The notes under the pieces are model-generated. The model saw only the letters and a list, made by a program, of their open reading frames with translations, was not told the DNA's origin and ran no database searches. Positions 27,969-64,000 of a stretch of 64,000 nucleotides of DNA are shown here, piece after piece. The position numbers and the translations under genes are program-made. The stretch lies in the NCBI RefSeq assembly GCF_051903065.1, contig NZ_CP178438.1. One strand, given 5' to 3'. Every line of letters starts with the position of its first letter. Position 1 is the first letter of the stretch. Source of the DNA: Escherichia coli. Lineage in GTDB: Bacteria > Pseudomonadota > Gammaproteobacteria > Enterobacterales > Enterobacteriaceae.

Positions 27969-28130
27969 GTCTGGCGTAGGCCGGATAAGACGTTTACGCC
28001 GCATCCGGCAATTGTGCACCGATGCCTGATGCGACGCTGACGCGTCTTATCATGCCTACAAATCTGTACGCGAACCGTAGGCCGAATAATGCGTTCACGC
28101 CGCATCCGACCTGAAAATTCTTAAATCAAT
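27969..28130. repeat. REP/BIME cluster
   Basis: Repeated palindromic units GCCGGATAAG...GCCGCATCCGGCA and GCCTGATGCGACGCTGACGCGTCTTATCA. Confidence 0.85.
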
Positions 28131-30558: not shown

Positions 30559-31308
30559 ATGTCCTTGCCATCGATTCCATCCTTTGTATTGTCGGGATTA
30601 CTGTTGATTTGTTTGCCGTTTTCTTCATTTGCCAGCGCCACCACATCACATATCTCTTTCAGCTACGCCGCCCGCCAGCGGATGCAAAACCGTGCGCGTT
30701 TATTAAAACAGTACCAAACCCATCTGAAAAAGCAGGCCAGCTATATTGTGGAAGGCAATGCCGAAAGCAGAAGGGCGCTGCGCCAGCACAACCGCGAACA
30801 GATAAAACAGCATCCAGAATGGTTTCCTGCGCCGCTCAAGGCGAGTGACAGACGCTGGCAGGCGCTGGCGGAAAACAACCACTTTTTAAGCAGCGACCAT
30901 TTGCATAACATTACCGAAGTGGCGATTCACCGCCTGGAGCAGCAGCTTGGCAAGCCTTACGTCTGGGGCGGCACGCGGCCTGATAAAGGCTTTGACTGTA
31001 GCGGGTTGGTTTTTTATGCCTACAACAAGATCCTCGAGGCGAAGCTCCCGCGTACGGCTAATGAGATGTATCACTACCATCGGGCAACGATTGTGGCGAA
31101 TAACGACCTGCGCCGGGGAGATTTGCTGTTTTTCCATATCCACAGCCGCGAGATTGCCGACCATATGGGGGTGTATCTGGGCGATGGGCAATTTATCGAG
31201 TCGCCGCGTACGGGGGAAACCATTCGGGTAAGCCAGTTAGCAGAACCTTTCTGGCAGGATCATTTTTTAGGCGCGCGCCGGATTTTGACGGAAGAGACGA
31301 TTTTGTAG
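30559..31308 (+). CDS. yafL: NlpC/P60-family peptidase YafL
   Basis: NlpC/P60 Cys-His core (DCSGLVFYAY...HMGVYLG); start placed at MSLPSIPSF. Confidence 0.85.
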   Translation: MSLPSIPSFVLSGLLLICLPFSSFASATTSHISFSYAARQRMQNRARLLKQYQTHLKKQASYIVEGNAESRRALRQHNREQIKQHPEWFPAPLKASDRRWQALAENNHFLSSDHLHNITEVAIHRLEQQLGKPYVWGGTRPDKGFDCSGLVFYAYNKILEAKLPRTANEMYHYHRATIVANNDLRRGDLLFFHIHSREIADHMGVYLGDGQFIESPRTGETIRVSQLAEPFWQDHFLGARRILTEETIL

Positions 31309-31395
31309 GACGGATAAGGCATTCACGCCGCATCCGGCAGTTGTACGCAGGTGCCTGATGCGACGCTGGCGCGTCTTATCATGCCTACGAGCCCG
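31309..31395. repeat. REP elements (left of rayT)
   Basis: GGATAAGGCATTCACGCCGCATCCGGCA ... GCCTGATGCGACGCTGGCGCGTCTTATCATGCCTAC. Confidence 0.85.
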
Positions 31396-44903: not shown

Positions 44904-44979
44904 GCCGATATAGCTCAGTTGGTAGAGCAGCGCATTCGTAATGCGAAGGTCGTAGGTTCGACTCCTATTATCGGCACCA
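44904..44979 (+). tRNA. thrW: tRNA-Thr (anticodon CGT)
   Basis: GCCGATATAGCTCAGTTGGTAGAGCAGCGCATTCGTAATGCGAAGGTCGTAGGTTCGACTCCTATTATCGGCACCA; cloverleaf with CGT anticodon. Confidence 0.95.
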
Positions 44980-50273: not shown

Positions 50274-50948
50274 TTAGGCTTTGATTTTGTATCTTCTTGG
50301 TTTTCCTGAGAAAATCACTGTACCAATTATAGAGCAATTACCGTTGATCTTAATGTAAGGCTCAGGCCAGTTTGGGTTTAACGCTTTGAGATAACGCTGT
50401 GTCCCATCTTCTATCAACCTTTTGAAGGTGGTTTCGCCTGTATCGTGCATCAATGCAATAACGTCGTCACCGTGGCAGGCAGGTACTTCAGGATCGACAA
50501 AAATCATGTCTCCCGGGCGGTACTCATCAATCATTGAATCACCTATCACCCGCAAGATATAAGTCATTTCCCCACAGGGTACAGGGCAGGGATACGTTTC
50601 TGCTGTGCTCAAATCAACCTCAGAATATCCAACTTCTTTCCATGCTCCGGCCTGTACCCATGATATGACAGGGACTAATGTGATTTGTTTATTAGTGATT
50701 GAAACATCAGGTTTTTTTGTGATGTTCGTTGTCTGGTGTTCTTGATCGAGCCATCCGACAGGCAGGTCGAAACATTTTTCGATGTGTCGTGCCATGCTGT
50801 CACCGATATTTTTAGTAGCACCATCTCCCATAAACCTGCTGGTCTGGGTTGGCTCGCGATCAATCATAGTGGCAAAGGAAGAATTCCCGCCAACACCATC
50901 TCTCAGTTTTCTGGCGTTAGACCGCCGGATGTCATGGATTGTTTTCAT
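50274..50948 (-). CDS. cI: Phage CI-type repressor (HTH plus S24 LexA-like peptidase domain)
   Basis: 224 aa; C-terminal S24 motifs (GDSM...K); ATG has no upstream RBS, consistent with a leaderless transcript. Confidence 0.85.
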   Translation of the reverse strand: MKTIHDIRRSNARKLRDGVGGNSSFATMIDREPTQTSRFMGDGATKNIGDSMARHIEKCFDLPVGWLDQEHQTTNITKKPDVSITNKQITLVPVISWVQAGAWKEVGYSEVDLSTAETYPCPVPCGEMTYILRVIGDSMIDEYRPGDMIFVDPEVPACHGDDVIALMHDTGETTFKRLIEDGTQRYLKALNPNWPEPYIKINGNCSIIGTVIFSGKPRRYKIKA

Positions 50949-50962
50949 AACGAAATTAAAAC

Positions 50963-51033
50963 CCTTGTACCGTTAAGGTACAAGTATCTTGAAGGTTCAT
51001 TTCAATCATGTAATATGTACACCGGAGGTACAT
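50963..51033. promoter_or_regulatory. OR region: two palindromic operators and the rightward promoter
   Basis: CTTGTACC-gttaa-GGTACAAG (50963-50983) and ATGTAC-accggag-GTACAT (51015-51033); TTGAAG-16-TAATAT promoter at 50987-51014. Confidence 0.65.
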
Positions 51034-51239: not shown

Positions 51240-51270
51240 CAGAACACTTTCAATTTTTAACCACAGAACG

Positions 51271-51834
51271 ATGAGGCTAACCGTGGGTAAGCATCACTGG
51301 AAAATAGAAAAACAGCCTGAGTGGTACGTGAAAGCTGTCAGAAAAACTATCGCGGCGTTGCCGGGTGGTTACGCTGAAGCGGCTGACTGGCTCGATGTAA
51401 CAGAAAACGCTTTATTCAACCGCCTTCGTGCAGATGGCGATCAGATTTTCCCGCTGGGATGGGCAATGGTTTTACAGCGTGCTGGTGGCACTCACTTCAT
51501 TGCTGATGCTGTGGCGCAGTCTGCAAATGGCGTCTTTGTGTCTCTTCCTGACGTCGAGGATGTGGACAACGCCGATATCAACCAACGCCTGCTGGAAGTC
51601 ATTGAACAGATCGGCAGTTATTCAAAACAGATTCGTTCAGCAATTGAAGACGGTGTAGTGGAACCGCATGAGAAGACAGCAATTAACGATGAGCTGTACC
51701 TCTCAATTTCGAAGCTGCAGGAGCATGCAGCACTGGTCTACAAAATCTTTTGCGTTTCAGAAAGTAGTGACGCCCGCGAGTGTGCAGCTCCGGGCGCCGT
51801 GGCGTGTCGTGACTGTGGAGAAACTAACGCATGA
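51271..51834 (+). CDS. Phage CII/YdaT-like regulatory protein
   Basis: 187-aa ORF directly after cro. Confidence 0.5.
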
Positions 51835-52189
51835 ACAGTTTAACAACACACTACCGTCGCTCGCAACTGATTGCGCTTCCTGTACCGGGTGGAAAAGCGA
51901 AGGTGGAGTATTGCTATGCAGTAAATGTACCAGGTGACAGGGAAATTGTAACCCACAGCTTTGCAGAGTGGGCTGTGGGTGATTTCAACCGGCAGAAGGA
52001 GACAGTCCTTTGCGACAAGTTAACCGCTGGTTCAAAGATCACTACGGAGTGCCCGTCAGAGTCATTCGTTGGGAGCCGGAAACACAACGGGTTATCTACC
52101 TCCGTGAAGGCTATGAGCATGAGTGCTTCAGCCCGCTCGAACAGTTTCGTCGTAAATTCAGGGAAATAGAGGTCGGTCATGAGCACTAA
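51831..52189 (+). pseudogene. Phage gene with an apparent single-base frameshift in a T-run
   Basis: Frame 0 ([10 protein letters not shown]...QKETVL) is protein-like up to about 52010; frame 2 from 52010 ([59 protein letters not shown]) is protein-like and ends abutting the next gene. Confidence 0.5.
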
Positions 52190-53120
52190 ATTAACCGGCT
52201 ATGTATGGGATGGTTGCGCTGCGTCAGGCATGAAATTATCCAGCGTGGCAATTATGGCCCGCCTGGCTGATTTCAGTAATGACGAAGGTGTGTGCTGGCC
52301 ATCAATTGAAACCATTGCCCGTCAGATTGGCGCGGGGATGAGTACCGTCAGAACGGCTATCGCACGGCTGGAAGCAGAAGGCTGGTTAACGCGTAAGGCG
52401 CGTCGCCAGGGTAACCGCAATGCGTCGAATGTTTATCAGCTTAACGTTGCGAAGCTTCAGGCAGCGGCATTTTCTCAACTGTCAGATTCTGACCCGTCAA
52501 AATCTGACGCATCAAAATCTGACCCGTCAAAATTTGATGCGTCGAAATCTGGCAAAAAAGCGGGTTTTCACCCGTCAGAATCTGGCGGGGATCCGTCAGT
52601 AAAATCAAAACATGATCCGTCAGATAAAAAAACTTCTCGTCCGGACGCTTCGCAACCGGACACGCAGACGGCTGAACAGGAGTTTTTAACTCGCCATCCT
52701 GATGCGGTTGTATTCAGCCCTAAAAAGCGCCAGTGGGGAACGCAGGATGATTTGACCTGCGCACAGTGGCTCTGGAAAAAAATCATCGCCCTGTACGAGC
52801 TGGCCGCCGAATGTGACGGCGAGGTGGTTCGTCCCAAAGAACCGAACTGGACAGCCTGGGCAAACGAAATTCGCCTGATGTGTGTGCAGGATGGTCGTAC
52901 TCACAAACAAATCTGCGAGATGTACAGCCGCGTCAGCCGCGATCCGTTCTGGTGCCGTAACGTGCTCAGCCCGTCGAAGCTGCGGGAAAAATGGGATGAG
53001 CTTTCCCTGCGCTTATCGCCGTCCATCAGCACATACACAGAAAAACGCGAAGACCCGTATTTCAAATCCAGTTACGACAACGTGGACTACAGCCAGATCC
53101 CGGCAGGATTCAGGGGGTGA
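52179..53120 (+). CDS. Phage replication initiation protein (lambda O-like) with internal iterons
   Basis: 313 aa; N-terminal winged-helix region, repeat-encoded Ser/Asp/Lys-rich linker. Confidence 0.7.
   Translation: MSTKLTGYVWDGCAASGMKLSSVAIMARLADFSNDEGVCWPSIETIARQIGAGMSTVRTAIARLEAEGWLTRKARRQGNRNASNVYQLNVAKLQAAAFSQLSDSDPSKSDASKSDPSKFDASKSGKKAGFHPSESGGDPSVKSKHDPSDKKTSRPDASQPDTQTAEQEFLTRHPDAVVFSPKKRQWGTQDDLTCAQWLWKKIIALYELAAECDGEVVRPKEPNWTAWANEIRLMCVQDGRTHKQICEMYSRVSRDPFWCRNVLSPSKLREKWDELSLRLSPSISTYTEKREDPYFKSSYDNVDYSQIPAGFRG
52485..52625 (+). repeat. Iteron array, candidate phage origin of replication
   Basis: Tandem imperfect repeats (GACCCGTCAAAATCTGAC / GCATCAAAATCTGAC / CCGTCAAAATTTGATGCGTCGAAATCTGGC / CCGTCAGAATCTGGC / TCCGTCAG). 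Confidence 0.65.
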
Positions 53121-53611
53121 GCATGAGTCTTTTGAATGAAGTTCAGAAATTCATTGAAGCCCATCCGGGCTGTACTTCCGGAGACATTGCGGATGCTTTT
53201 GCAGGTTACTCACGGCAGCGCGTTCTGCAGTCAGCAAGCAAGTTACGTCAGAGTGGGCGTGTGGCTCACCGTTGTGAAGGGGATACACGCAGACATTTCC
53301 CGCGCCTGACTGAGAGAGCGCAGGAGCCGGAACCACAACCAGTTCGTGAAACCAGACCTGTGCGCAATTTCTATGTCGGCACTAACGATCCACGGGTGAT
53401 TTTGTGCCTGACCCGCCAGGCTGAAGAACTGGAGTCCAGGGGCCTATACCGTCGTGCTGCAACGGTGTGGATGGCGGCATTCCGTGAAAGCCACTCCCAG
53501 CCAGAACGAAACAATTTTCTGGCGCGTCGTGAGCAGTGCTTACAGAAAAGCAGCAAGCGCGCTGCATCGGGTGAAGAGTGGTATCTGTCAGGGAATTACG
53601 TGGGGGCGTAA
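53117..53611 (+). CDS. Phage hypothetical protein (possible HTH)
   Basis: 164-aa ORF overlapping the stop of the O-like gene. Confidence 0.5.
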   Translation: MSMSLLNEVQKFIEAHPGCTSGDIADAFAGYSRQRVLQSASKLRQSGRVAHRCEGDTRRHFPRLTERAQEPEPQPVRETRPVRNFYVGTNDPRVILCLTRQAEELESRGLYRRAATVWMAAFRESHSQPERNNFLARREQCLQKSSKRAASGEEWYLSGNYVGA

Positions 53612-53937
53612 TGACGACGTTAACTCAATGCCAGCAGCAGGTGCTGGATATGCTGATTTCTTATCAGAAAGAACGTGGCTTCCCGCCAACCAATCAGGAG
53701 GTGGCTACCATGCTGGGATACCGTTCAGTGAATGCAGCGGTGGAGCATCTTCGCGCACTGGAGAAAAAAGGCGTCATCACGATAAAGCGTGGCGTGGCAC
53801 GGGGGATAACGCTTCATACCGCGGTGAAGGACGACGACAGCGAGGCGGTCGGGATTATCCGCTCACTGCTTGCCGGTGAGGAAAACGCCAGGCTGCGTGC
53901 AGCCCACTGGTTACATGAGAGGGGCCTGAAAGTATGA
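53611..53937 (+). CDS. LexA N-terminal DNA-binding-domain-like protein (no peptidase domain)
   Basis: Start at ATG 53611 (MTTLTQCQQQVLDMLISYQKERGFPPTNQEVATMLGYRSVNAAVEHLRALEKKGVI), resembling the LexA winged-helix domain. Confidence 0.6.
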   Translation: MTTLTQCQQQVLDMLISYQKERGFPPTNQEVATMLGYRSVNAAVEHLRALEKKGVITIKRGVARGITLHTAVKDDDSEAVGIIRSLLAGEENARLRAAHWLHERGLKV

Positions 53938-54323
53938 AGCTGATCCTGCCTTTTCCGCCCAGCGTGAACACGTACTGGCGACACCCCAACAAAGGGGCGT
54001 TTGCTGGTAAGAGCCTGATAAGCGCGGCGGGGCGCAAATTCCAGAGCGCGGCGTGTGCAGCAATAGTTGAGCAGTTACGTCGTCTGCCAAAACCAACGTC
54101 GGCACCTGCTTCAGTGGAGATCGTGTTGTTTCCTCCGGATAACCGGATCCGCGATCTGGACAACTATAACAAGGCGCTGTTTGACGCCCTGACCCACGCG
54201 GGGGTGTGGGAAGACGACAGCCAGGTGAAAAGAATGCTGGTGGAGTGGGGGCCGGTTATCCCGGAAGGGAAGGTCGAGATCACTATCAGTAAGTACGAGA
54301 AAACGGCGGGTGCAGCCGCCTGA
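53934..54323 (+). CDS. rusA: Holliday-junction resolvase RusA-like
   Basis: 129 aa with conserved RDLDN motif. Confidence 0.85.
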   Translation: MKLILPFPPSVNTYWRHPNKGAFAGKSLISAAGRKFQSAACAAIVEQLRRLPKPTSAPASVEIVLFPPDNRIRDLDNYNKALFDALTHAGVWEDDSQVKRMLVEWGPVIPEGKVEITISKYEKTAGAAA

Positions 54324-54342
54324 TTAAGAGGAGAAACGAAGT

Positions 54343-55140
54343 ATGAATAATCTGATGGTCATTGATGGTATTGAAGTTCGTCGTGATGCTTATGGGCGTT
54401 ACAGCCTGAACGATCTGCACAGGGCTGCCGGTTCTCAGGATAAGCATAAGCCTGCATTCTGGCTCCGCAATGAGCAAACCGAACGTTTAATACGCGAGTT
54501 GCAGATTTGCAACTCGGTCAATATAGAGCCAGTTAACGTTAGTCGTGGCGGAAATAACCAGGGGACGTATGTCTGCAAAGAACTGGTGTATGCCTATGCA
54601 ATGTGGATCAGCCCGTCATTCCATCTGAAGGTGATCCGTACTTTCGATATGGTAACCAGCGCACCGGAAAAATTATACGGGCAGGCTGCTGACAAGATGC
54701 AGGCTGGCGTGATTCTGCTGGACTTTATGCGCCGGGAGTTAAACCTGTCTAACTCATCTGTGCTTGGGGCCTGTCAGAAACTCCAGGAGGCTGTTGGCTT
54801 ACCGAATCTGGCACCACGCTATGCCATTGATGCTCCTGCTGACGCGCCTGATGGCTCAAGTCGCCCGACACTGTCACTGAGTGCACTGCTGAAACAGTAT
54901 GGTATCTGCCTGACGGCTAATCAGGCATATCACCAGATGGCGAAGCTGGGGATCGTGGAACAACGCGAACGATACAGCCGTACCGCGATTAACAACATCA
55001 AAAAATTCTGGTCGCTGACAGCGAAAGGCTGCATGTTCGGCAAGAACATCACCAGTCCCGCAAATCCGCGCGAGACGCAGCCGCATTTCTTCGAATCCCG
55101 ATTCCCTGAGCTGTTAAAGCTGCTCGATACCGTTCATTGA
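54343..55140 (+). CDS. KilA-N domain protein (antirepressor-like)
   Basis: 265-aa ORF; KilA-N-type N-terminus. Confidence 0.6.
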   Translation: MNNLMVIDGIEVRRDAYGRYSLNDLHRAAGSQDKHKPAFWLRNEQTERLIRELQICNSVNIEPVNVSRGGNNQGTYVCKELVYAYAMWISPSFHLKVIRTFDMVTSAPEKLYGQAADKMQAGVILLDFMRRELNLSNSSVLGACQKLQEAVGLPNLAPRYAIDAPADAPDGSSRPTLSLSALLKQYGICLTANQAYHQMAKLGIVEQRERYSRTAINNIKKFWSLTAKGCMFGKNITSPANPRETQPHFFESRFPELLKLLDTVH

Positions 55141-55141
55141 G

Positions 55142-56137
55142 GTGACCGTGAGAGCACTACTGACCCCTGAAATAGCCCCGCGTATGGGGATCGTATTGTT
55201 CAGACCCGGTTCAGAGCTGATGCCCCTGTTTATGCAGGGGCGTGTCCTGCTGGAGCCTGAGCCGGAACGTTATTCATCTTTCGCCAGTGGTGCCGTTCCC
55301 GCGGCATCACAACCGCTGGCGGATGATCCTGCCGTTCGGGCCGTGTTCTGCAATGAGGCAGTGATCCGTCGTACTGGTGGCGTGGAATGTCTTGAAAGCT
55401 GGTTACTTCGTGAAAAGGGCTGTCAGTGGCCTCATTCCGACTGGCACAGCGAGAACATGACCACAATGCGACACGCGCCGGGCGCGATCCGTCTGTGCTG
55501 GCACTGCGATAACCAGCTGCGCGATCAGTTCACGGAACGGTTGGAATCAATGGCAACGGATAACTGTGCCCGCTGGGTGTTGTCTGTTGTGCGTCGGGAT
55601 CTCGGTTTTGATGACAGTCACGTTGTGACAATGCCGGAACTGTGCTGGTGGCTGATTCGTAATGACCTGGCGGATGCCTTACCGGAAAGTGCAGCCCGTA
55701 AGGCACTGAGATTACCGAAGCCTGTTGTGCCGTCTGTCACCCGGGAAAGTGACCTTGTTCCTTCGGTTCCTGCCACCAGCATTATCCAGGATAAAGCGAA
55801 AAAGGTGCTGGCGCTGAAAGTGGATCCAGAGTCGCCGGAGTCTTTTATGTTACGCCCAAAACGTCGCCGCTGGGTTAATGAAAAGTACACGCGCTGGGTT
55901 AAGACACAGCCGTGTGCATGTTGTGGAAAGCCTGCTGATGATCCCCACCACCTGATAGGTCACGGTCAGGGTGGAATGGGTACAAAAGCGCATGACCTCT
56001 TTGTGTTGCCTTTGTGCAGAAAGCATCACGACGAGCTGCATGCGGATACCGTGGCATTTGAAGAGATGTATGGCTCCCAGTTGGAGCTGATATTTCGTTT
56101 TATTGATCGTGCGCTGGCAATTGGCGTGCTGGCCTGA
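55142..56137 (+). CDS. Phage DUF968-like protein
   Basis: 331 aa; Cys/His-rich C-terminus (CACCGKPADDPHHLIGH...CRKHHDELH). Confidence 0.6.
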   Translation: MTVRALLTPEIAPRMGIVLFRPGSELMPLFMQGRVLLEPEPERYSSFASGAVPAASQPLADDPAVRAVFCNEAVIRRTGGVECLESWLLREKGCQWPHSDWHSENMTTMRHAPGAIRLCWHCDNQLRDQFTERLESMATDNCARWVLSVVRRDLGFDDSHVVTMPELCWWLIRNDLADALPESAARKALRLPKPVVPSVTRESDLVPSVPATSIIQDKAKKVLALKVDPESPESFMLRPKRRRWVNEKYTRWVKTQPCACCGKPADDPHHLIGHGQGGMGTKAHDLFVLPLCRKHHDELHADTVAFEEMYGSQLELIFRFIDRALAIGVLA

Positions 56138-62521: not shown

Positions 62522-64000
62522 GCCGGAAATCTTACCCCAACGTAAATGCTGCCAATCAGTATGCCCGGGATGTCGTGCGCGGAAAGATTGTGGCCTGCCA
62601 GTTTGTGATTCAGGCCTGCCAGCGCCATCTTGATGACCTGATGGCGGAAAAAAGTAAGTCGTTTCGTTACCGCTTCGACAAGGACCTGGCTGAACGGGCC
62701 GCCAAATTTATTCAGCTGTTGCCGCACACCAAGGGTGAGTGGGCATTCAAGAGGATGCCCATCACGCTGGAGCCGTGGCAGCTCTTTGTGATCTGCTGCG
62801 CGTTTGGCTGGGTCAATAAAGGCTCCCGGCTGCGCCGCTTCCGTGAGGTGTATACCGAAATCCCCCGTAAGAACGGCAAATCGGCAATCTCTGCCGGTGT
62901 CGCCCTGTATTGTTTTGCCTGTGATAACGAGTTTGGCGCGGAAGTGTATTCCGGTGCCACGACAGAGAAACAGGCGTGGGAAGTCTTTCGCCCGGCGCGA
63001 CTGATGTGTAAACGCACACCCATGCTGACGGAAGCGTTCGGGATTGAGGTTAACGCCTCAAACATGAACCGTCCGGAGGATGGCGCGCGGTTTGAACCGC
63101 TGATCGGTAACCCCGGTGATGGATCATCACCCCACTGTGCGGTGGTGGATGAATATCACGAGCACGCCACCGATGCGCTTTACACCACGATGCTTACCGG
63201 GATGGGGCGCGACGTCAGCCACTGATGTGGGCCATTACTACTGCCGGGTACAACATTGAGGGGCCGTGCTACGACAAGCGGCGGGAAGTCATCGAGATGC
63301 TCAACGGCTCGGTGCCCAACGATGAACTGTTCGGGATCATCTATACCGTTGATGAAGGTGACGACTGGACCGACCCGCAGGTGCTGGAAAAAGCCAATCC
63401 AAATATTGGCGTGTCGGTTTATCGCGAATTTTTGTTAAGTCAGCAGCAGCGTGCGAAAAATAACGCCCGTCTGGCAAACGTCTTTAAAACAAAACACCTC
63501 AATATCTGGGTGTCGGCGCGTTCGGCGTATTTCAACCTGGTGAGCTGGCAGAGCTGCGAGGATAAATCACTGACCCTTGAGCAGTTCGAGGGGCAGCCGT
63601 GCATTCTGGCCTTTGACCTGGCGCGTAAGCTGGATATGAACAGCATGGCGCGACTTTATACCCGCGAGATTGACGGTAAAACGCATTACTACAGTGTGGC
63701 CCCGCGTTTCTGGGTACCGTATGACACGGTGTACAGCGTCGAGAAAAATGAAGATCGACGGACAGCCGAACGCTTTCAGAAATGGGTGGAAATGGGCGTT
63801 CTGACCGTTACCGATGGTGCAGAGGTGGATTATCGCTACATCCTCGAAGAGGCCAAAGCGGCGAACAAAATCAGCCCGGTCAGTGAGTCACCCATCGACC
63901 CTTTCGGAGCGACCGGGCTCTCACATGACCTTGCTGATGAAGACCTGAACCCCATCACTATCATTCAGAACTACACCAACATGTCCGACCCGATGAAAGA
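62518..64000 (+). CDS. Terminase large subunit, disrupted by a 1-nt frameshift near 63204-63207, 3'-partial at window end
   Basis: Frame 1 carries Walker A (IPRKNGKS) and Walker B (AVVDEYHEH) and stops at 63225; frame 0 from 63153 continues terminase-like to the window end. Confidence 0.8.

Follow-up and report, generated by a model that had tools for sequence, protein, structure and literature searches.

The 64,000-nt stretch of Escherichia coli DNA analyzed here (contig NZ_CP178438.1; hereafter the window) contains a prophage that aligns with Shigella phage SfIV from the integrase to the right end, over 44.93–61.96 kb, at 97% identity. Its sole recognizable replication gene encodes an O-like replication initiator of 313 amino acids (aa) (52179–53120, + strand) and is 99.4% identical to SfIV orf41. 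In the middle of this gene lie an array of six short palindromic repeats, or iterons (52482–52585), and an A/T-rich tract that extends to 52637. An earlier note on this DNA had described about five repeats at 52485–52625 and had read them as a lambdoid replication origin inside the initiator gene; here we describe the element and weigh that interpretation. The gene is widespread, being present at ≥80% coverage in 1575 of 5426 complete E. coli genomes (~29%), where the only name assigned to its product by PGAP is "helix-turn-helix domain-containing protein."

The initiator matches PHROG 391 ("replication initiation O-like", E = 3e-134). Its aa 131–277 share 34.9% identity with the C-terminal part of lambda O (E = 6e-18; tblastn to lambda, 933W, and relatives), and this homology, together with helices in an AlphaFold2 model, delimits a helical C-terminal domain (aa 162–279; 52662–53015, + strand). 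The N-terminus contains a winged helix of Pfam family HTH_36 (aa 23–70), with further matches to GntR, MarR, DnaD_N, and RP-C, and Phage_rep_O was not among the Pfam matches of the initiator at E values up to 0.01. By these comparisons, the initiator is a real lambda O relative in its C-terminal part and carries an N-terminal domain of another Pfam family. AlphaFold2 models that domain (aa 1–99; 52179–52475, + strand), the presumed reader of the iterons, as four helices, a beta hairpin, and a helix, with block-mean pLDDT values of 63–89. Residues 103–161 have pLDDT values below 50 and are modeled without secondary structure, and the peptide linking the two domains is predicted to be disordered. 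A PDB sequence search returned weak MarR-type matches to the winged helix and none for the C-terminal domain or the C-terminal tail.

A repeat search detected six copies at successive spacings of 15, 15, 15, 15, and 33 bp. Tandem Repeats Finder reported a period of 15 with 4.3 copies (81% matches) and a period of 30 with 2.1 copies (88%) across 52488–52551. Searching for CCGTCARAATCTG, the consensus given in the earlier note, with up to two mismatches yielded 12 matches in the window, compared to a mean of 2.98 in shuffled sequence, where 12 was reached in 0 of 100 shuffles. Eight of the 12 fall within 52479–52588: six on the + strand, starting at 52479, 52494, 52509, 52524, 52539, and 52572, and two on the − strand, because the repeat unit is partly palindromic. 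Considered together with conservation and polymorphism, described below, the repeats resolve into six 11-bp palindromic cores of the form TCARAWTCTGA, at 52482–92, 52497–507, 52512–22, 52527–37, 52542–52, and 52575–85. Cores 1–5 are spaced 15 bp apart, each 11-bp core being followed by a variable 4-bp spacer, and a longer step of 33 bp, spanning a conserved A6…T4 spacer (52553–52574), separates the fifth core from the sixth. The central base of the core alternates between A and T among the copies (GATTC vs GAATC), as expected for a symmetric site.

Immediately 3' of the array are two 24-bp repeats, GATCCGTCAGTAAAATCAAAACAT and GATCCGTCAGATAAAAAAACTTCT (52590–52637), which form a candidate DNA-unwinding element. 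Each opens with a half-copy of the iteron, GATCCGTCAG (at 52590 and 52614), that is followed by an A-rich tract, and GATC (the Dam site) occurs at the same two positions. The earlier note had proposed looking for an adjacent AT-rich region, and one lies directly downstream of the array: the segment 52598–52637 is 72% A+T, no other 40-mer of the gene is as unstable (z 3.3), and it is the third least stable in 50.9–53.7 kb, after intergenic control regions only. The array and the tract together (52482–52637) encode aa 102–153, between the winged-helix and helical domains. The placement of the repeats in the linker-coding part (aa 101–153) therefore agrees with the earlier note, as does its location for them; the extent that it gave was slightly narrow, as the array begins at 52479/52482 and the end of the A/T-rich repeats is at 52637, and its count of about five copies is a fair description of six full cores plus two half-copies. 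Pattern and repeat searches revealed no other comparable repeat cluster in the replication region.

Comparisons with related phages show that the array is constrained as DNA. We compared the codons of the window with those of Klebsiella phage 1 LV-2017, Citrobacter phage phiNP, Yersinia phage YeP3, and phage phiP27, considering only codons that specify identical amino acids. Codon identity in the array (aa 101–150) was 87%, 95%, 81%, and 87%, respectively, compared to 43%, 49%, 38%, and 40% in the N-terminal domain (Fisher p = 5e-8 to 1.2e-4); the C-terminal control gave 49%. Amino acid identity was, if anything, lower in the array than outside it, so that the shared codons cannot be put down to a recent transfer of this segment. 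Serine codons are likewise biased, with TCA or TCT accounting for 60 of 67 in the array and 30 of 114 elsewhere (p = 1.4e-17).

The reading frame itself has changed in one relative. In phiP27, GGCAAAAAAA-CGGTTTTGACCCTTCAGAATCTGG aligns base for base with GGCAAAAAAGCGGGTTTTCACCCGTCAGAATCTGG of the window save for a 1-nt indel, and hence the same DNA is read in another frame: the spacer and sixth-core segment is translated as KKTVLTLQNL, compared to GKKAGFHPSES in the window. The heads of the two 24-bp repeats are also maintained, since GATCCG is invariant at both in five phages from four host genera and is present in three copies in phiP27. In that phage (3433–3470 of the extracted locus, aligned with window positions 52551–52585), the frame is restored by an insertion of ~26 nt, which supplies the third GATCC-headed repeat.

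Similar constraint was observed over shorter divergence among 61 distinct, near-identical 942-nt alleles from IMG/VR. Seven of 12 spacer positions are polymorphic in this set versus one of 48 core positions (p = 1.5e-5), and the spacer changes are nonsynonymous, e.g., P to T, Q, A, or R. The array is thus constrained as DNA rather than as peptide, and the synonymous-site, codon, frame, and polymorphism results all contradict the coding-only low complexity that the earlier note had named as grounds for abandoning its reading. The IMG/VR scan, made with an alignment of the N-terminal domain, retained 80 loci; these are essentially identical alleles, of no use for deep covariation but informative on polymorphism and copy number. 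Close relatives vary by whole 15-bp units (−1, +1, +2; loci L083, L043, L044, and L024), and the alleles also include a 12-nt duplication and two variants (L019 and L013) that are frameshifted or truncated within or just past the array. That alleles differ by whole units or are disrupted near the array suggests that it is a slippage hotspot.

The array is inherited with the N-terminal domain of the initiator. This domain and the array are found joined to three unrelated C-terminal domains, represented by the window/Klebsiella, phiNP/YeP3, and phiP27 types. Phage mEp460_4F5 presents the opposite combination, with the C-terminal module of the window (96.6% identity from 52624) placed behind another N-terminal domain, and its repeats differ, comprising four copies of CATCGGGTCAAAGTGACCTGATG. 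The limits of homology, supported by protein comparison, locate a mosaic junction between "N-terminal domain plus origin" and the C-terminal module at 52624–52657: mEp460_4F5 shares only query positions 446–942 (52624 onwards) and phiNP only positions 2–479 (to 52657). Since the phiNP homology ends at 52657, both the array and the A/T-rich tract travel with the N-terminal domain. A new N-terminal domain is accompanied by a wholly different array, whereas swapping the C-terminal domain or the neighboring genes leaves the array unchanged. By this pattern of exchange, initiator specificity and iterons form a classic modular pairing.

This pairing extends to more distant O-like genes with HTH_36 domains, namely SfV orf39, Stx2a_F403 O, and those of Klebsiella phage RothC, Vibrio phage D75, Edwardsiella phage Edno5, and mEp460_4F5. 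All six contain dyad-symmetric arrays of their own at an equivalent relative position, with repeats 21–24 bp apart. The repeat units are GGGGTGGGGCAGGAGCTGCCC in Stx2a_F403 (three copies), TATGCCATCTGATGGCAC in RothC (four copies), CCTAGTGACAAAATGTCACCA in D75 (three copies), AATGATCCCAAAATTGGGAT, also given as ATCCCAAAATTGGGAT, in Edno5 (three to five copies), and of the GTGCAGGAGATTCAC type in SfV (about three copies). The arrangement resembles that of the window: a winged-helix domain followed, 270–450 nt into the gene, by three to five dyad-symmetric direct repeats and then by short A/T-richer repeats. They differ from the window in their spacing, in having repeats unrelated to TCARAWTCTGA, and in that several have a P, DnaC/DnaB-like, or primase-helicase gene as partner; the Edno5 and RothC arrays, for example, accompany a P gene.

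Just after these unrelated arrays, four to five of the O-like genes share a nearly identical stretch of ~45 bp, CCAGAACCAGTCACTCTTTTGAACCAGTCAATGAACC. It is found in SfV (L094:2625–2672), at L093:2625–2672, and in Stx2a_F403 (L087:2795–2830), RothC (L088:2805–2850), and Vibrio D75 (L089:2765–2810), and contains two to three copies of GAACCAGTCA at 17- and 12-bp spacing, i.e., in two reading frames. This stretch could be a common unwinding or loading element. Where these four other HTH_36 initiators have GAACCAGTCA, the window has two copies of GATCCGTCAG.

We interpret the array as the origin, acting in cis, from which an SfIV-type lambdoid prophage replicates, located inside the linker-coding part of its own initiator gene, and assign this reading a probability of roughly 0.8. 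The repeats would very probably be the initiator-binding sites of that origin. All features of the ori-in-O arrangement that can be sought in sequence are present, except that a partner loader gene is missing and homology of the N-terminal domain to lambda O is not supported, and the lambdoid reading of the earlier note is supported to the extent that each of its testable sequence-level predictions held. The array of the isolated, viable phage SfIV is identical to that of the window. In the lambda and Stx phage origins, iterons and an A/T-rich tract lie in the middle of O (PMC7466680), and the position of the least stable, A/T-rich segment directly downstream of the array matches this layout and supports the origin reading.

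The likeness to ori-lambda and to the origins of 933W and vB_EcoS_P27, the last two of which have six iterons, extends to several details. In each case, dyad-symmetric iterons occupy the linker-coding part of the initiator gene with an A/T-rich tract downstream, the unit follows cro and cII within the rightward early operon, the C-terminal parts of the initiators are homologous, and gain or loss of iterons adds or removes linker residues. The window differs from lambda in its HTH_36 N-terminal domain, its 15-bp period with 11-bp cores, the lack of a P gene, and an A/T-rich tract made of two GATC-headed repeats, and its origin function is deduced from sequence. Tandem, GATC-bearing, A/T-rich repeats are also known from the 13-mers of oriC (GATCTnTTnTTTT) and from P1 oriR. 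These resemble the window in having short GATC-headed repeats in tandem, with the A/T-rich part beside the initiator sites, but the sequences are non-homologous, and the window has only two copies and no DnaA boxes. A Dam-type methylase is encoded directly after the O-like gene in many relatives; the prophage of the window has no phage methylase at this position. Iteron plasmid replicons (pSC101, R6K, RK2, and P1 oriR) differ in using a Rep_3 initiator, in having DnaA boxes beside the iterons, and in their phasing of about two helical turns. The initiator of the window has no Rep_3 match, its RP-C and DnaD_N matches are weak and below cut-offs, and its array has a 15-bp period, so that it does not belong with these replicons.

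Several points weigh against the origin reading. The literature on SfIV and O-only phages shows no ori, binding, unwinding, or origin activity for the element, and neither the papers on SfIV and on the O-only phages nor that on the Stx replication region describes this origin. All other arrays examined have periods of 21–24 bp, not 15 bp. The A/T-rich tract is moderate (72% A+T), ranking near the 95th percentile when all 40-mers of the window are considered. With no helicase-loader gene in the SfIV annotation and no DnaA box in the O-like gene, no player emerges for the step from the open complex to helicase loading; the closest approaches to a DnaA box, 9-mers with a single mismatch at 51257, 51561, 51814, and 54602, all fall outside the gene. 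Two palindrome registers, TCTGA-N4-TCARA and (G)TCA-N5-TGA(C), fit the data equally, and either yields a half-site geometry resembling that of the relatives. Lastly, the homologues are mosaic relatives, and the comparative tests are therefore not fully independent.

The alternative that survives best is that the array binds protein without being an origin. It could serve autoregulation or titration of O, act as a transcription roadblock, or be the site of another regulator, with replication starting elsewhere or depending on recombination. The conservation of the DNA and its co-inheritance with the N-terminal domain demonstrate a cis function linked to that domain but not which function it is, the A/T-rich tract is only moderate, and replication of O-only lambdoid phages is not understood, some related phages needing host recombination for growth (PMC12315714). 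Nevertheless, the layout corresponds element by element to the lambda and Stx origins, including its position in the rightward early operon (PMC7466680), and the P-bearing relatives Edno5 and RothC have arrays at the same position. The operator palindrome of the cI-cro region, CTTGTACC..GGTACAAG (50964–50984), is unrelated to the array cores, and no second cluster of repeats like the array was seen in the replication region. We consider this alternative unlikely.

Considerably less probable is an origin whose reader is not the N-terminal domain of the initiator encoded there but a host factor or a different phage protein. A candidate reader exists in the 164-aa protein encoded just downstream (53117–53611), which has a winged-helix-like N-terminal part and a PerC domain. 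However, in Klebsiella phage 1 LV-2017 and phiNP the array has no such PerC-like gene beside it, the array changes with the N-terminal domain and persists through swaps of the C-terminal domain or the neighbors, and the gene contains no DnaA box. Least credible of all is that the repeats are purely coding, a low-complexity (S/D)-P-S-K-S linker made by slippage with no role in cis: the array does encode a repetitive, predicted disordered peptide (SDPSKSDASKSDPSKFDASKS) and close relatives do differ by whole units, as slippage would produce, yet conservation at synonymous sites far exceeds that of the flanking domains even though the encoded residues vary freely, phiP27 keeps one unit in another frame, the polymorphic positions are concentrated in the 4-bp spacers rather than the 11-bp cores, and slippage, which homogenizes repeats within a genome, cannot explain codons shared across phages of Escherichia, Klebsiella, Citrobacter, and Yersinia.

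If the array is the prophage origin, initiation might proceed as follows. Loss of the prophage repressor would allow rightward early transcription and synthesis of the O-like protein, whose winged-helix domain, probably as a dimer, would occupy the alternating TCARA/TCTGA half-sites. With sites only 15 bp apart, neighboring dimers would lie ~150 degrees apart around the helix and could form a tightly packed nucleoprotein filament, rather than follow the phasing of about two turns of lambda-type arrays. The GATCCGTCAG half-copies may also be bound by the initiator. The complex would then destabilize the adjacent 40-bp A/T-rich tract (52598–52637), and we conjecture that the two GATC sites may render this opening sensitive to Dam methylation. 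Recruitment of the host helicase would fall to the helical C-terminal domain, homologous to that of lambda O. Host DnaB-DnaC would have to be used directly, because this phage type has no P, DnaC-like, or DnaB-like gene; the best candidate for a recruiting motif, although a speculative one, is a DnaT-like tail at the end of the initiator.

The replication module of the window and SfIV is of the O-only lambdoid type, i.e., a single O homologue without a helicase or loader gene. None of the 54 annotated coding sequences of SfIV is a helicase, loader, or primase, and the genes that follow the initiator in the window are PerC-like, LexA-DBD, RusA, and KilA-N, with no P, DnaC-like, or DnaB-like gene among them. 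O-only modules have been described in phage LLS and in 34 of 314 Enterobacteriales lambdoid phages (Zheng, Casjens, Davidson, Amundsen, and Smith, Genome Res 2025, PMC12315714), a survey that describes the replication of this type as not understood and names mEp460_4F5 as the phage nearest to LLS in its CI and Cro. It does not mention "iterons," and the origin anatomy and the DnaT-like tail are additions of the present analysis.

The tail, SQIPAGFRG (aa 305–313; 53091–53117, + strand), was recognized by BLASTP against K-12 DnaT and agrees at eight of nine positions with the residues that end E. coli DnaT, SQIPPGFRG (aa 171–179). No significant similarity to DnaT was found past it: BLASTP gave only the 9-residue match, and there was no DnaT hit in Pfam, NCBIfam, or the PDB sequence search. 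The label "Primosomal protein I" in phage annotations is hence not a call of DnaT membership. The tail is present in 65 phage records, on at least three different types of C-terminal domain, and the last 76 bp of the gene are ~95% shared with otherwise different O-like genes.

Among 15 modules inspected, all nine that carry the tail, i.e., window/SfIV, mEp460_4F5, Klebsiella 1 LV-2017, phiNP, SfV, Stx2a_WGPS2, ST64B, mEp390, and 2H10, are of the O-only type (9/9), and the tail is absent from all four with a loader or helicase gene, i.e., RothC, Edno5, phiP27, and Stx2a_F403 (4/4); the remaining two, YeP3 and Vibrio D75, have neither. This association between tail and missing loader gives a hypergeometric p of ~0.011, calculated by hand on samples that are not independent. 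SfV and phiP27 have the same type of C-terminal domain, with SfV carrying the tail without a loader and phiP27 carrying DnaC- and DnaB-like genes without the tail. DnaT delivers DnaB-DnaC to the restart primosome (PMC5778457). We tentatively propose, as an idea more likely to fail than to hold, that the tail replaces a phage loader and, following iteron tiling and opening, recruits DnaB-DnaC or PriB/PriA as DnaT does; as part of this proposal, the motif might, speculatively, have been copied from, or be shared with, host DnaT. If true, the tail would also reveal a so far undocumented DnaT surface for DnaB-DnaC handover.

Placing an origin within the gene for its initiator is textbook lambda biology, and the present case is a probable, unannotated example in a widespread but unstudied phage group, with the 15-bp packing, the GATC-headed unwinding repeats, and the O-only context as its variant features. 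The finding is mainly one of sound annotation. Two serotype-converting phages of Shigella, SfII and SfIV, carry the same initiator gene, and the SfIV GenBank/RefSeq and other inspected phage records contain only coding sequences over the gene and no origin feature. The anatomy described here, with its cores, variable spacers, and GATC-headed A/T-rich repeats, provides a concrete substrate for asking how O-only phages load the host helicase, and the DnaT-like tail a testable candidate for the recruiting step.

The local gene order comprises an S24 repressor gene (50274–50948, − strand), cro, a CII/CP76-like gene (51271–51834), two small overlapping open reading frames (51831–52169 and 52010–52189), the O-like gene, the PerC-like gene (53117–53611), and, downstream of it and within 53117–56137, a LexA-DBD gene, RusA, a KilA-N gene, and an HNH-like protein. 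The two small frames overlap by 160 nt in different reading frames and each matches a protein family, one of them phrog_1170 (E = 3e-70; annotated as SfIV orf40) and the other DUF4222/phrog_1343 (Pfam E = 9e-19; annotated by RefSeq in E. coli). At the integrase end, the prophage adjoins a tRNA-Thr(CGT) gene (44904–44979), which is likely its attachment site. By its alignment and position, the element is a thrW-type, SfIV-like prophage that continues towards the end of the window. Homology to SfIV, in integrase-to-right-end order, stops at ~61.96 kb and homology to vB_EcoM-689R6, including the large-terminase gene, extends to position 64000; for this reason, the prophage is probably cut by the end of the window.

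Three further candidates were rejected. Copies of CCGTCAG at 52053, 52319, and 52345, which precede the N-terminal coding part or fall inside it, might have been outlying sites for the initiator, but their synonymous positions are not conserved in homologues, where CGT becomes CGC or CGA and ACC becomes ACT or ACA. These heptamers, which include a 22-nt stretch 82% like the sixth iteron region, are probably fortuitous on this comparison. A terminator-like hairpin on the minus strand (52574–52561), within the A6/T4 spacer, was dismissed since Klebsiella phage 1 LV-2017 and phiP27 retain the A and T runs but not the stem. Circular "plasmids" of 37–41 kb were disregarded as evidence of episomal replication, given that they contain homopolymer indels typical of assembly error and leave the O gene unannotated. 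Rfam gave no match in the origin region; outside the prophage, two matches to naRNA4 (CssrE, a nucleoid-associated ncRNA) scored above the gathering threshold, at 27979–28056 and 31308–31385.

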